From Capsulimonadales bacterium (GTDB taxonomy: Bacteria > Armatimonadota > Armatimonadia > Armatimonadales > Armatimonadaceae), in the NCBI GenBank assembly GCA_033762295.1, contig JANRLW010000064.1, forward strand, positions 109,214-173,213: 64,000 bases of DNA, given 5' to 3'. Of the stretch, positions 35,100 through 40,618 are shown piece after piece. A program made the position numbers and the translations under genes. The notes beneath the pieces were generated by a model. That model searched no databases. It was not told where the DNA came from and was given only the letters and a program-made list of their open reading frames with translations. How positions within the stretch are numbered: the stretch's first letter is position 1; each line of letters starts with the position of its first letter.

Positions 35100-36890
35100 A
35101 TGACGGGAAATCGGCTCAAAGGGCGCCTGCCAAAGATCGGCATCCGTCCGACCATCGACGGTCGCTACGGCGGCGTGCGCGAATCGCTCGAAGATATCAC
35201 AATGAATATGGCACGGGCGACCGCGCAGCTGCTGATCGATAACCTGCAGCATGCCTGCGGCCTTCCGGTGGAGGTCGTCCTGGCGGACACCTGTATCGGC
35301 GGCGCGGCGGAGGCGGCGGAGTGCGCCGAGAAGTTCGCGCGCGAAGGCGTCGGTGTCCACATCACCGTGACCCCGTGCTGGTGCTACGGTTCCGAGACGA
35401 TGGCGCTCGAACCCGACCTGCCGACGGCGGTCTGGGGATTCAACGGGACCGAACGCCCCGGAGCGGTCTACCTGGCCGCCGTCCTTGCCGGACACAATCA
35501 GAAAGGGCTGCCGGCATTCGGAATCTACGGTCGGGACGTGCAGGACGCCGGGGACGCCAATATTCCGGCCGATGTCGCGGCAAAGCTTCTTCAGTTTGCC
35601 CGCGCCGGTCTGGCCGTGGCGACCATGCGCGGGACCTCCTATCTGGCGATGGGCGGCGTCTCCATGGGAATCGCCGGGTCCGTCGTCGATCCGACCTTCT
35701 TTGAAACCTTTCTCGGAATGCGCTCCGAAACCATCGACATGACGGAGTTCATCCGGCGGATGGAGCGCGGCATCTACGATCGGGACGAGTACGAACGCGC
35801 TCTGGCCTGGGTAAGGACGAACTGCCGCGAAGGCAAGGATTGGAACACCGAGGACAAAAAACGTTCGCGCGAGCAGCTGGATCGAGAGTGGGAACAGTGC
35901 GTCCGAATGGCTCTGATCGCTCGTGACCTGATGATCGGAAACCCGAAACTGGCCGAGATGGGCTTTGTCGAGGAGTCGCGGGGGCATAATGCCCTGGCGA
36001 GCGGCTTCCAGGGACAGCGGCAATGGACTGATCACTTCCCGAACGGCGATTTTTTGGAAGCCATCCTGACCTCCTCGTTCGACTGGAACGGCATCCGGCA
36101 GCCGTATATGGTCGCGACGGAAAACGATGCTCTCAACGGTGCGTCCATGCTCTTCGGACACCTGCTCACCGGCGGAACCGCCCAGCTGTTCGCCGACGTT
36201 CGAACGTACTGGTCACCGGAAGCCGTCCGGCGGGTCACCGGACATGAACTCACGGAAAGGGCGGCGGGCGGCATCCTCCACCTGATCAACTCCGGCCCGG
36301 CGGCGCTCGATTGGACCGGCGAACAGACCGAGGACGGAAAACCGGCGCTCAAGCCGTTCAACCGGATCACCGAAGCCGAGGCGCAGGCGTGCCTCGACGC
36401 GACCCGCTGGTGTCCGTCGATGTCCGAGTATTTCCCCGGTGGCGGCTGGTCCACCGACTTCACGACCCGTGGCGGGATGCCCGTGACCATGTTCCGGATC
36501 AATCTCGTCAAGGGACTGGGGCCGGTTCTCCAGATTGCCGAGGGCTACACCGTCGATCTGCCGGAAGAGGTGCATCGCGCCCTGGACGAGCGGACCAACC
36601 CGACCTGGCCGACCACCTGGTTCGTGCCGAATGTCACCGGGCAGGGCGCGTTTACCGATGCCTACACGGTCATGCTTCACTGGGGCGCGAACCACGGCGC
36701 GATCTCCTACGGCCATATCGGTGGCGATCTCATCACTCTGGCCTCCATGCTGCGGATTCCCGTCGATATGCACAACGTCCCGACCGAACGGGTCTTCCGA
36801 CCGTCCGCCTGGATGCGGTTCGGTAGCGGAATGGACGAAACGGGCGCCGATTACCGGGCCTGCGCCGTCTACGGACCGCTGTACGGCTGA
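35100..36890 (+). CDS. fucI: L-fucose isomerase
   Basis: [62 protein letters not shown]. Confidence 0.96.
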
Positions 36891-36954
36891 ATACGACCGG
36901 GGACCGATCTTTTCTCGAACGGAGGCGGGGGAACGGTTCCCGGAAGGTGTGCAA

Positions 36955-36975
36955 TATACCCCCGGGTGGTATAAT
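36955..36975 (+). promoter_or_regulatory. CsoR-type operator overlapping an extended -10 promoter
   Basis: TATACC-CCCGGGT-GGTATA inverted repeat around a C/G tract; TG-G-TATAAT at 36967-36975. Confidence 0.7.
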
Positions 36976-36981
36976 GCCTCC

Positions 36982-37470
36982 GTGACACAGCGTGGATTCC
37001 GGTTCCGGCTCCCGATCGCGGTGATTCTGGCGGCTTTCCTTATCGGATCGCTACCATTGCCGCAAGTGCGGGCAATCTATCGCCCGCACCGGCCCGGTGC
37101 GACGACCGTTGGGACGACCGTTGCGACGACCGTTGCGACTCCCAATTCGGCCCGGTGCGCGATGAAGGCGGCCGGGAAGCCGTGCTGCTGTCCGTCGGCG
37201 CTCGCCGGGCCGACCGGGGACACCCCTTCCGAGGAGGTGGCATGTCCTTGCGCCCTGGGCTCCGGCGAACCCCTGCCACCCGACCCGACGACCTCCGTTC
37301 CGGTGTCTCCTTCCCCGGCGGACTCTCCGACGCGAAGTCACATCTGCACGCCGGCGAATCGGGGGCAGGAGCCTCCGCTTTCGCCGGCGACCAACTTCGA
37401 CCCCGTCCCCTTCCGATCCGGAGAGCGTCCGCCCGACGCCGGACGCGCCCCGCCTTCGCCTGACGCGTAA
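36982..37470 (+). CDS. Cys-rich leader protein with C-terminal RAPP motif (DUF2946/CruR/CutF-like)
   Basis: GTG 6 nt after -10; hydrophobic N-terminus; C..KPCCCP...CPC; Pro-rich tail ending GRAPPSPDA*. Confidence 0.7.
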   Translation: MTQRGFRFRLPIAVILAAFLIGSLPLPQVRAIYRPHRPGATTVGTTVATTVATPNSARCAMKAAGKPCCCPSALAGPTGDTPSEEVACPCALGSGEPLPPDPTTSVPVSPSPADSPTRSHICTPANRGQEPPLSPATNFDPVPFRSGERPPDAGRAPPSPDA

Positions 37471-37529
37471 CGTTGTCTCGGCGGCCTGTTTTCGCGCCGC
37501 CACCGTGTCCACGCTCAGGAGAGGTTTCC

Positions 37530-38705
37530 ATGCTACGTTCCTTTTGGGTTGCCTTGCTCGGCATCGCCCTTCTTTCGTTGCCATCGCCCGTCCGCGCGCA
37601 GGGGAAAAACCCTGTCGAATCGTCAGGACGATATCGTGTCGAACTGCGACTGCCTCCGGCCGGCGTCTATGCCGGAGAGGAGATCGATATCGAATTTCGT
37701 GTGACCGATACCGCAAAAGCCGACCCGGTTCTCGGTGCGCCCGGAGTCATCCGCGCGCGGATCAAAGCGGCGGTGACCATGCCCTCCATGGCCGGGATGC
37801 CGGCGATCGTTCCGAAGATCCATTCCGAAGGGGTGCCCGGTGACTACGGTCTGGTCGCGACCTATCCCCACGGCGGGGAGTACCGGATCGCCCTCAGTAT
37901 CACGCCGCCCGGGTCCGAAAGTCCGTTCACGGTGGCGTTCCTCATTGATGTCGGGGATGCGGACGCGCGGCCGAAAGGGCGACCTGTGAACGCTCCGTAC
38001 CGCCTCGACGTCAGGTCCAAACCCGAAAAGCCGACCGGGCAGCAGCCGGTCGATCTCGCTCTGCGGGTCCTCGAACGCGCCACAGGCAGGCCGGTTACCG
38101 CGTTCGAGATCGTCCATGAGCAGCCGATGCACCTGATCGTGGTTCGTGAAGACCTCGGGGCGTTCTTCCATGAGCACCCGACACGGAACGAGGACGGAAC
38201 GTTCACCCATCGCTTCACCTTCCCGTCCGGCGGGTTGTGGCGGGTGTTCGGGGATGTCGCGCCGGTCGGCGCGGGCAGTCAGGTACTGGCAACGACCATC
38301 AAGGTCAACGGACCGGTGCCGCCCAGAGCGCCGCTGACGACCGTCCGCGGACCGGTCACCGATCGGGAACTGACACTGACCTTTCCGACGGATCGCCTGC
38401 CGGAACGCACGCTGTTTCCCTGGACCTTCGACCTGAAGGACTCGGCCGGGATGCCGATCACCGATCTTCAGCCGTGGCTCGGCGCGCCCGCCCACCTTAT
38501 TCTGATTTCCGGGGATGGCGAAACGTTCGTCCATTCCCACCCGGATGAGTCCGACCCGAAGAACGGAACCAACGGCAAACTGACCTTTCTCGTCCGGTTC
38601 CCCCGATCGGGCATCTTCAAGGGGTGGCTCCAGTGCCAGCGGGCGAACGAGATCCGGACGCTGCCCTTTGTCGTGCGGGTGCAGGGGAAGGCGGCGAGCC
38701 GATGA
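37530..38705 (+). CDS. Periplasmic His/Met-rich heavy-metal-binding protein (YtkA/FixH-like plus two Ig-like domains)
   Basis: Signal peptide; MPSMAGMP; HEQPMHLIVV...FFHEHP; WLGAPAHL...FVHSHP. Confidence 0.75.
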   Translation: MLRSFWVALLGIALLSLPSPVRAQGKNPVESSGRYRVELRLPPAGVYAGEEIDIEFRVTDTAKADPVLGAPGVIRARIKAAVTMPSMAGMPAIVPKIHSEGVPGDYGLVATYPHGGEYRIALSITPPGSESPFTVAFLIDVGDADARPKGRPVNAPYRLDVRSKPEKPTGQQPVDLALRVLERATGRPVTAFEIVHEQPMHLIVVREDLGAFFHEHPTRNEDGTFTHRFTFPSGGLWRVFGDVAPVGAGSQVLATTIKVNGPVPPRAPLTTVRGPVTDRELTLTFPTDRLPERTLFPWTFDLKDSAGMPITDLQPWLGAPAHLILISGDGETFVHSHPDESDPKNGTNGKLTFLVRFPRSGIFKGWLQCQRANEIRTLPFVVRVQGKAASR

Positions 38706-40618
38706 GCGATTTTCGTTGCCGCTACCTGCCGTTCGTCGTGCTTCCGTGGGTGCTTCTGATTGCGCTGCTCGGAGGACCGAGCTCGGCGTCGGCGGCGCAT
38801 CCGCCGAAGAAGGGCGTGAAACGTCCTCCCTCAAAAGCGGCCGCGCAGATCCGCGCGGCCGGACAGCGGATCGACGCGGCGAAAAAGCGATTGCGTGCGG
38901 AGGGGAAGTACGGCTGCTGTCTCAAACCGGCAGCCGGTCGGACGGTCGGGGGCTGTGAGCATTGTCTGAAAACCGCGGGGGAATGCCGCTGTGCCGCGAA
39001 CCTTCGGGCGGGCAAAGGGGTGTGCGGACAGTGCGTCGCCGGGTGGAAAGCCGGACAGGGGGCCATCGCCGGCATCGACCGGGACCGGGTCCGATGGTCG
39101 CCGTCCGAGCCGTCCGAGTCGAAAAACGCGGCGACCGAAGTACCCGAACTGATCGAGGCCCGCGAACTCCTGACCATGGCGAAACGAACGATGGTCGCCG
39201 AGGGACGTTACGTCTGCTGTATCGGGGACGGCGGCTGTGACGAATGCGCCCTGGAGGGGGACTGCCCGTGCGGCATCGAACTCAACGAAGGCGCGGAAGG
39301 GCAGGGGGTCTGCGGTTCCTGCTACGACGGCTGGCATGCCGGTCACGGCAGCTTCGAAGGGGTGGAGATTGCGTCGGTACGACTCAACGTCCAGCCGGGC
39401 CACGGAAGCGGGGACGACCGGGACGTGTTCGGAATGTTCGGTGACTGGCGGATGAACCGCGAGGGGTCGGGAACCGCCTGGCTGCCGGACTCCTCGCCCC
39501 TGTACGCGCAAATGACCCGCTGGGGCGACTTCCGGACCATGCTCCACGGGTACGGCTACGGCGTTTACACCGATCAGAAAGCCCGGGGAAACCGGCGCGG
39601 CGACGATGGGACGTTCGTTGCTTCCCAGATCATGGGAATGGCCTGGCAGCGCAAAGGGAATGCGATCTTTGGTGGGCGGATGATGCTTTCGGCCGATCCG
39701 TGGACGATCGGAGATTCGGGCTATCCTCTCCTCTTTCAGACGGGGGAGACGGCGAACGGCCGGCCACTGGTCGACCGCCAGCATCCGCATGACCTGTTTA
39801 TGGAACTGGCCGCCGCCTATACGCAAAGGCTGACACCGAACGGTGGCGCGTTATCGCTATATCTGGCTCCGGTGGGCGAGCCGGCCATCGGTCCGCCCGC
39901 CTTCGCCCACCGACCGTCCGCGTTCGACAACCCCGAAGCCCCGATTTCGCATCACTGGTTCGACTCCACCCATATTACGTACGGCGTGGCGACGGTCGGA
40001 CTGGCGAATCGCGCCGTCAAACTGGAGGGAAGCCTGTTCACCGGGCGCGAACCGGACGAGAACCGGGAACGGTGGGACCGTTTCCGCTGGGACTCGACGT
40101 CCGTTCGCCTGGCGGCGAACCCGACCCGCGATCTGGCGTTTCAGATCAGCCAGGCGTGGCTCCGACGACCGGAAGCCCTGGAACCGGACACCGATCAGCG
40201 GCGATACACCGCCTCCGTCCTCTACAACCGGCCGCTGGCCGAGGGGCGCGCCAATCTTCAATCCTCCCTGATGTGGGCGCGTAATCGGAAGTATGCGCCG
40301 GACCATGCCCCGGCGAACAGCGATGCGCTTCTGTTCGAGACCGCCTTTCTCGCTCCGGAAGGGACTCTGTTCGGAAGGTGGGAACGAACGGACAAGGACG
40401 AACTCTTTCCGGGAATGGAGGACCACCGCGCTTTCCGGGTCAACAAGTTCACTCTGGGAGGCGTTCATAACCTTGCCGCAACGCGCGGAGCGGAACTGGG
40501 TATCGGAGGCAGCGTGTCCGCTTTCTCGATTCCGGCCGGGTTAAAGCCGGACTACGGTTCCTCACCGCTGACGTTCAACCTTTTCCTGCGGCTCCGGTCG
40601 GCGCGGATGATGCACTGA
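38702..40618 (+). CDS. Outer-membrane beta-barrel-like protein with N-terminal tandem 8-Cys domains
   Basis: Signal peptide; two CC..CxxC..CxC..CxxC repeats; REGSGTAWLP, DRQHPHDLFMEL, HHWFDSTHI; amphipathic strands; ATGA overlap. Confidence 0.75.
   Translation: MSDFRCRYLPFVVLPWVLLIALLGGPSSASAAHPPKKGVKRPPSKAAAQIRAAGQRIDAAKKRLRAEGKYGCCLKPAAGRTVGGCEHCLKTAGECRCAANLRAGKGVCGQCVAGWKAGQGAIAGIDRDRVRWSPSEPSESKNAATEVPELIEARELLTMAKRTMVAEGRYVCCIGDGGCDECALEGDCPCGIELNEGAEGQGVCGSCYDGWHAGHGSFEGVEIASVRLNVQPGHGSGDDRDVFGMFGDWRMNREGSGTAWLPDSSPLYAQMTRWGDFRTMLHGYGYGVYTDQKARGNRRGDDGTFVASQIMGMAWQRKGNAIFGGRMMLSADPWTIGDSGYPLLFQTGETANGRPLVDRQHPHDLFMELAAAYTQRLTPNGGALSLYLAPVGEPAIGPPAFAHRPSAFDNPEAPISHHWFDSTHITYGVATVGLANRAVKLEGSLFTGREPDENRERWDRFRWDSTSVRLAANPTRDLAFQISQAWLRRPEALEPDTDQRRYTASVLYNRPLAEGRANLQSSLMWARNRKYAPDHAPANSDALLFETAFLAPEGTLFGRWERTDKDELFPGMEDHRAFRVNKFTLGGVHNLAATRGAELGIGGSVSAFSIPAGLKPDYGSSPLTFNLFLRLRSARMMH

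Follow-up and report, generated by a model that had tools for sequence, protein, structure and literature searches.

A short gene ending in an R-A-P-P motif stands ahead of two genes for envelope proteins in the 64,000-nucleotide stretch of DNA that we analysed (the window), and the end of this leader gene can pair with the next gene's Shine-Dalgarno sequence (SD). We consider it very probable that the pairing forms a switch, a stem that is opened by stalling of the ribosome on the leader, and copper is probably the signal. That copper turns the switch on is a closer call, which we put somewhat above even. The principle is familiar from secM-secA, in which a stalled ribosome melts a stem. The features are as follows.

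36954..36974, no strand: CsoR-type operator by consensus match, a pseudo-palindrome with G/C tracts that overlaps the -10 box
36970..36975, + strand: TATAAT -10 box 6 nt ahead of the GTG, from the sequence and the layout at csoR
36982..37470, + strand: leader open reading frame of 162 aa with C-terminus RAPPSPDA-stop; the GTG at 36982 is the most likely start
36982..37074, + strand: signal-peptide-like N-terminus, basic residues and then a hydrophobic core
37183..37251, + strand: Cys cluster C68-C69-C70 plus C88-x-C90, from its conservation a putative metal or disulfide sensor
37444..37455, + strand: RAPP, putative arrest motif, with R155, P157 and P158 invariant and their codons varied
37453..37468, + strand: anti-SD 5' arm, within the footprint predicted for a stalled ribosome, from the fold and the orthologue arm tests
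37480..37501, + strand: inner hairpin of GGCGGC (37480-85) and GCCGCC (37496-501) in the fold, variable among orthologues
37511..37524, + strand: 3' arm with the SD AGGAGAGG (37517-37524), from sequence and fold
37530..38705, + strand: 391-aa protein, likely secreted, with three Ig-like domains (PF13115, E 1.5e-8)
38702..40618, + strand: 638-aa protein whose Cys-rich N-terminal domain is duplicated, with a porin-like outer-membrane beta-barrel, from a structure model and conservation

The leader and its RAPP motif

RAPP is encoded at 37444-37455, as in the original prediction, the codons in frame being CGC GCC CCG CCT with the stop at 37468-37470. The leader also has C59 and a Pro-rich linker ahead of RAPP, and its stop is 59 nt from the ATG at 37530. 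Searches of Pfam and NCBIfam gave no match for the leader protein. A longer TTG-started reading frame from 36535 was considered as the leader and rejected, as it overlaps a fucose isomerase gene.

We started the comparison from 71 non-duplicate loci with a match to the N-terminal domain; five had less than 600 nt upstream and were removed, which left 66. An adjacent leader with R[AG]PP and a stop is present in 29 of these, the window included. The remaining 37 comprise eight with an R[AG]PP leader farther upstream, five with a different Cys leader and 24 with neither in the available sequence, so that 29 of the 66 have no R[AG]PP leader in the upstream DNA available. The 29 adjacent leaders are 126-173 aa long by automatic start choice, and spacers across the orthologous leader loci are 55-165 nt. 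By hydropathy alone the best 12-residue value is 2.98 for the window leader and 2.07-2.98 for all 29.

In an alignment of 22 leaders, with mean identity of 25%, only C68, C69, C90, R155, P157 and P158 are invariant, with C88 nearly so. In all 29 the last CC or CxC is 62-71 residues before the R, and the motif is within 1-4 residues of the stop. The codons for R, for A or G and for both Pro residues vary (CCG is found at the second Pro in one of the 29 loci, against 15 at the first), and the constraint is thus on the protein. Conservation of RAPP, on which the original prediction depended, is therefore found at the protein level as RAPP or RGPP, and it is likely that the motif stalls ribosomes at the end of the leader. 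A search with a leader profile gave matches in 26 of the 31 other genomes of the family and, outside the family, in one of 39 genomes of the order, among them paralogues that precede other genes.

Several other features of these leaders are worth recording. A short tandem repeat at 37107-37139 of the window, coding for TTVG-TTVA-TTVA, is missing in the orthologues, and the leader segment upstream of the Cys cluster thus tolerates insertions. The same genome (G000) has five more RAPP/RGPP leaders, on contigs C18 (4378-, 12382-, 39921+) and C21 (554-, 4658-): those on C18 have a CruR-like CxxC and long spacers, and those on C21 are of the CC/CxC type of the window and precede a TolC-like gene and a gene for a small Cys-rich secreted protein. 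At L228 a CC-type RAPP leader is upstream of a prepilin-like gene (FTLIELIVVI). At L037, L039, L125 and L130 the leader heads a longer operon with long SD stems, the first gene of which encodes a protein of about 560 aa with repeated CPV modules; by our own reading of the sequence these modules are probably YHS-like, and the same operon type is probably present at L038 and L042. At L032, L041, L047, L048 and L122, which are of Acidobacteriota type, the orthologous gene is preceded by a different secreted Cys leader that ends in P-L-x-L-R-[IV]-stop or H-C-V-F-L-I-stop, with the end of the reading frame 107-144 nt before the match and a predicted SD-hiding stem that begins at or around the stop codon. 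This leader may be a termination-stalling replacement for RAPP.

The predicted stem over the Shine-Dalgarno sequence

The proposed pairing of 37453-37468 with 37511-37524, which holds the whole SD, is present in both the minimum free energy and centroid folds with small differences in register, and the SD bases pair with the footprint arm with a mean probability of 0.8. The inner GGCGGC/GCCGCC hairpin that had been proposed to close the loop is also in both folds, but its sequence is not conserved and the inner helices of the orthologues differ. No Rfam model matches 36800-37700 at E<=1, and there is thus no known riboswitch in that segment. A terminator-like hit at 37471-37483 was rejected, being below the shuffle mean of 3.1.

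Taken alone the window sequence is only suggestive with regard to the stem. As many as 141 of 200 shuffles fold equally well, and with a z of 0.57 the folding score was set aside as uninformative. Among 683 control gene pairs of the genome, which are roughly called pairs on the same strand, 30 do as well as the -18.7 kcal/mol of the arm duplex (4.4%, median -11.2). The evidence for more than chance pairing is thus the comparison of cognate with swapped arms in the relatives.

For the orthologues this comparison used 11 representatives of single-linkage clusters, one of which holds 19 loci. Cognate arm duplexes have a mean of -16.1 kcal/mol, against -9.3 (sd 3.8) for swapped arms, and in 200,000 permutations the observed cognate mean was never reached. 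A set of 23 paralogous leaders that precede other genes gave -14.3 for cognate and -10.7 for swapped arms. The p values, about 5e-6 for orthologues and about 1e-5 for paralogues, overstate the case, since the genomes are related and do not count as independent; we set the start codons of the orthologues, and reset those of four paralogues, by eye. The cognate arm ranks first or second in its row for 10 of the 11 representatives, the other being L003, where it is fourth, and the window comes first in both its own row and its own column of the matrix. Synonymous recoding equals the real energy in 10% or less of trials for eight of the 11 representatives, with a value of 0.101 for the window. The paralogues include three clear misses (L221, L230 and L233), all with long spacers.

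The 5' and SD arms differ widely in sequence among the orthologues but stay matched, and the conservation of the stem that was looked for is thus found, with matched changes in the arms. The CCTGA element of the window is likewise kept, in the orthologues as TCC-TGA in another reading frame, and its retention across differing frames again suggests constraint on the RNA. We conclude that the stem switch is likely to be a conserved regulatory element.

At L217 and L230, and also in the long spacers of L221 and L233, the anti-SD arm seems by eye to pair with an intermediate purine tract, and a second pyrimidine tract is opposite the true SD, a layout that suggests a four-segment relay switch. TCGTCG is found in 15 of 52 leader spacers (L002, L004-L008, L010, L011, L015, L113, L119, L195, L215, L230 and L235), against a mean of 1.5 and a maximum of 6 in mononucleotide shuffles, a count that relatedness inflates; it is absent from the window.

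Predicted opening of the stem by a ribosome

As described in PMC10951233, and for CruR by the toeprint in PMC12992588, arrest on RAPP peptides takes place while the P-site holds the first Pro, and this register would put the P-site at 37450-52 and the A-site at 37453-55. PMC12992588 also describes seven S. lividans RAPP/RGPP peptides, of which six yielded chiefly full-length product with E. coli ribosomes. Our footprint model has the P-site at the first Pro and an edge at +15, and covers about 37453-37464. The cost of opening the SD in the window is 9.8 kcal/mol for free RNA, 9.2-10.1 with the P-site on Arg, 5.1-5.9 with it on the first Pro, and 5.7 for a terminating ribosome. The modelled cost thus drops by about half at the first Pro with no drop two codons earlier, and the modelled switch point coincides with the arrest register given in those two papers. 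About 5 kcal/mol of SD structure is left in the stalled model, so the opening is partial, and a terminating ribosome opens the stem about equally well, so it is not unique to stalling.

The footprint takes over 2 kcal/mol off the opening cost in 26 of the 29 orthologous loci, with the median going from 7.4 to 3.0, and in 20 of the 23 paralogues. Just 19 of the 29 have an SD pairing with the footprint arm above 0.5. The proposal that a ribosome paused at RAPP would cover the 5' arm and free the SD thus gains support from the modelled, partial drop in cost, together with the conserved motif and the matched arms.

The promoter and the probable link to copper

The spacing of the TATAAT from the GTG suggests that the leader transcript is leaderless; a scan for sigma-70 consensus promoters, which requires a -35 box, found no promoter. 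The genome has a single CsoR-family gene (PF02583), on contig C16 directly upstream of a gene for a copper P-type ATPase (616.6 bits, against a cut-off of 397 for TIGR01511). This csoR has the same layout as the leader gene, with operator, TATGAT, 6 nt and GTG, and also looks leaderless. The C16 CsoR scores under the cut-offs for RicR, RcnR and FrmR, and its Cys-His-Cys ligand pattern fits what we take to be the fingerprint of Cu(I)-type CsoR proteins.

The csoR-copA region (G000 C16:4205-4600, L191) has three pseudo-palindromic operators. A 17-nt consensus made from them has four hits in the genome, the three themselves and the leader promoter, against one for the reversed control, a test that is partly circular. 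An earlier 16-bp pattern was of the wrong length and gave noise. The streptomycete CsoR consensus as given in PMC3902906 matches the window operator with four mismatches in 20, and in the 5.16-Mb genome its best site is that of copA (two mismatches), with the window site second (four) and seven sites with five, two of these being at csoR-copA. Operator-like sites precede eight of the 29 orthologous leaders, those of three genera and of the window; with the limit tightened to five mismatches, the 37 other loci have none.

CsoR is released from DNA by Cu(I). With the operator present, the leader operon is thus probably induced by copper, which favours a role in resistance and a switch of CutF polarity. 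It is likely that a stalling leader is here paired with a copper repressor, which suggests that the two types of control can be stacked on one operon.

The downstream genes

A TTG at 37473 was rejected as the start of the first downstream gene, as it has no SD and the orthologues start at the signal-like segment. The model of the 391-aa protein (pLDDT 92) has three Ig-like domains, the first of them Met-rich and YtkA/CrdA-like and the other two His-rich. Across 46 homologues M84, M87, M90 and eight His residues do not vary. The structure that the model matches best is H. pylori CrdA (9ll2), with Z 14.4, an rmsd of 2.2 over 106 residues and 10% identity, against Z 10.7 for the next; CrdA is described as a periplasmic Met-rich copper binder (PMC9182242). 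Foldseek found only generic Ig folds for the 391-aa protein.

The 638-aa protein has conserved Cys and His residues, and its modelled barrel (pLDDT 88.5) resembles OmpF-type porins with a target TM of about 0.65. Atlas look-alikes of this protein carry HMBD or Copper-bind domains, and those of the two downstream proteins together HMBD or cupredoxin-type domains, a shared fold that does not show function. NCBIfam has no name for the leader, the 391-aa or the 638-aa protein. Named homologues suggest a placement in the Armatimonadota. We consider the two downstream genes to be probable copper-handling envelope genes. Out of 8,000 scored candidates the homologue searches hit at least 1,001 in one case and at least 7,997 in the other, and for two such large unnamed envelope families the link to the leader points to a role in the handling of copper.

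Proposed mechanism and alternatives

We infer translation and export of the leader, its arrest, the ligand and the direction of the response from the features above, and suggest the following. Cytoplasmic Cu(I) would free the operator of CsoR, and a leaderless mRNA would begin at the GTG at 36982. The leader would be exported as it is translated, and the spacer of about 65 residues would put the CC/CxC outside the membrane when RAPP is at the peptidyl-transferase centre. By analogy with CutF, when copper is missing the chain would fold or be pulled through, and the ribosome would terminate and leave, so that the stem closes again over AGGAGAGG; if copper is present, arrest at RAPP would persist. 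The stalled ribosome would then lower the computed cost of opening the SD as above, and the CrdA/YtkA-like protein and the Cys-rich porin would be made, to bind or move envelope copper. This CutF-like reading, in which copper acts both by release of CsoR and by prolonging the arrest through the exported Cys residues, is the one that we prefer, with a little more confidence than doubt.

It has a more specific form, which we offer tentatively and rate at rather less than an even chance. The operon would then be a copper AND gate in two compartments, with CsoR reading cytoplasmic Cu(I) for transcription and the CC...CxC leader reading periplasmic copper for translation, and a leader family distinct from DUF2946 would be reused before many operons of these Armatimonadota. 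If so, an arrest peptide outside DUF2946 with a 65-residue ruler unlocks an envelope copper module, a triple-Ig CrdA-like protein with a Cys-rich porin, that has not been described before.

The direction may be the reverse, as in CruR, of the RAPP relatives the one studied best, which arrests at RAPP without copper and is relieved by it according to PMC9426467 and PMC12992588. Stalling would then keep the switch on by default and copper would turn it off, possibly with Rho, so as to damp or time the CsoR-induced operon or to gate copper uptake through the barrel. The genome has a Rho gene, 26 of the 29 leaders have more C than G ahead of RAPP (a ratio of 1.56 in the last 180 nt in the window), and some Atlas look-alikes of the barrel are auto-named 'TonB-dependent receptor'. 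But a CsoR operator speaks for copper as inducer, the first target is similar to the resistance protein CrdA and the spacers are short and structured, while the C>G skew could reflect the Pro-rich linker and is not diagnostic of Rho termination, and we consider this polarity unlikely.

Less likely again is a monitor of secretion or disulfide formation like SecM or ApdA/ApdP, stalling when its own Cys cluster is slow to be exported or oxidatively folded. It would suit the many paralogous leaders that precede small secreted CC-rich proteins, and disulfides are invoked in the CutF model itself as presented in bioRxiv 10.1101/2025.02.05.636593, while RAPP uORFs are listed before dsbA and thioredoxin genes in PMC12992588. 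However the window leader has no sec or dsb gene after it and does have a CsoR site, and the targets of other leaders are, by our reading of their sequences, TolC-like or YHS-like.

The near-equal costs of SD opening for ribosomes at the stop codon and at RAPP (5.7 and 5.1-5.9 kcal/mol) would be expected of plain translational coupling, in which any finishing ribosome opens the stem, RAPP slows it constitutively and CsoR provides all of the regulation; we think this very unlikely, as it leaves unexplained the invariant Cys cluster, the fixed spacing of 62-71 residues and an invariant motif that proteomes are described as otherwise avoiding (PMC12992588). A chance stem, from GC-rich DNA and Pro codons that complement any SD, is in keeping with the z of 0.57 and with the -9.3 kcal/mol still reached by swapped arms, but can be dismissed as highly improbable with cognate arms far above swapped ones in two separate sets and real codons better than synonymous recodings in eight of 11.

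Comparison with known systems

In the open-access literature, as covered by titles and the starts of abstracts, we found no paper about a RAPP leader under CsoR control or about this leader family in Armatimonadota, although published supplementary gene lists may include its members. A text search of the supplementary files of PMC12992588 (10 files, file 10 left out) found no 'Armatimonad', 'FixH' or 'YtkA'. The window leader falls within the broad class of RAPP/RGPP uORFs surveyed by that paper (Fujiwara et al. 2025), which are likewise small, with RAPP near the C-terminus and a gene of metal-homeostasis type downstream, and are secreted, as the window leader probably is; the paper's sections on them deal neither with covarying stems nor with control by CsoR.

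SecM-secA and ApdA/ApdP, as described by Morici et al. 2024 (PMC10951233), share the RAP/P arrest motif and differ in that they sense where proteins are localised and stand ahead of sec or yidC genes. With regard to transcription, the operator is of the sequence type reported for the CsoR regulon of Streptomyces lividans (PMC3902906), with sites before csoR and copA, a type-2 operator that appears to lie over the promoter and an apparent cognate Cu(I)-type CsoR gene in the genome; the difference is that one of the top sites of the present genome stands ahead of an operon that begins with a putative arrest-peptide leader.

The Bordetella pertussis leader CruR (Bp2923; Roy et al. 2022, PMC9426467), of the DUF2946 family, also stands at the head of a copper-related operon and has a C-terminal RAPP that keeps a fixed distance from a Cys motif, and it has an export signal where the window leader has a signal-like N-terminus. 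According to that paper CruR has its CxxC 45 residues before RAPP and a 162-nt spacer, and acts by Rho-dependent termination with copper turning it off. In contrast the window leader, although it does end in RAPP, lacks CxxC and has 64 residues separating C90 from R155, a spacer of 59 nt and a predicted stem that sequesters the SD. CxxC is present somewhere in five of the 29 leaders, and the DUF2946 spacing of 45 +/- 2 residues given in PMC9426467 is replaced by 62-71 in all 29. Pfam PF11162 (DUF2946) has no hit to the window leader, and its best score among 22 leaders is an E of 0.24, for one member. By Pfam score, Cys motif and spacing the window leader is not a member of DUF2946.

The closest system is CutF-cutO of Rhodobacter capsulatus (PMC9973294; bioRxiv 10.1101/2025.02.05.636593), in which there is, as proposed here, an exported Cys leader with a C-terminal Pro-rich stall motif, and a stem that hides the SD of a downstream copper-related gene and is opened by stalling (PMC9973294), as is predicted here. 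By the filter for CutF-like leaders as set out by Ozturk 2023 (PMC9973294), the window leader has PP in its last 15 residues, a same-strand gene within 1000 nt and a predicted SD-shielding stem with matched arms, but at 162 aa it exceeds the length limit of 150. As a candidate for the signal peptide that the filter also asks for, all 29 leaders show by hydropathy a hydrophobic stretch that comes after basic residues. CutF is described as having CxxxC, an EF-P-sensitive PPP, a stem that is intergenic and a multicopper oxidase as target (PMC9973294), whereas the window leader has CC...CxC, RAPP, an anti-SD coded in its last codons and a CsoR-type operator, with a CrdA/YtkA-like protein and a porin-like barrel as targets. 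The basic mechanism is thus already published for CutF-cutO, and our finding is only moderately surprising in that respect. CruR and CutF, the two copper-sensing arrest leaders that our literature searches brought up, act in opposite directions. The present leader family, with dozens of natural variants, matched stems and a fixed distance from sensor to stall site, allows a direct test of what sets the direction and of where the sensor sits.
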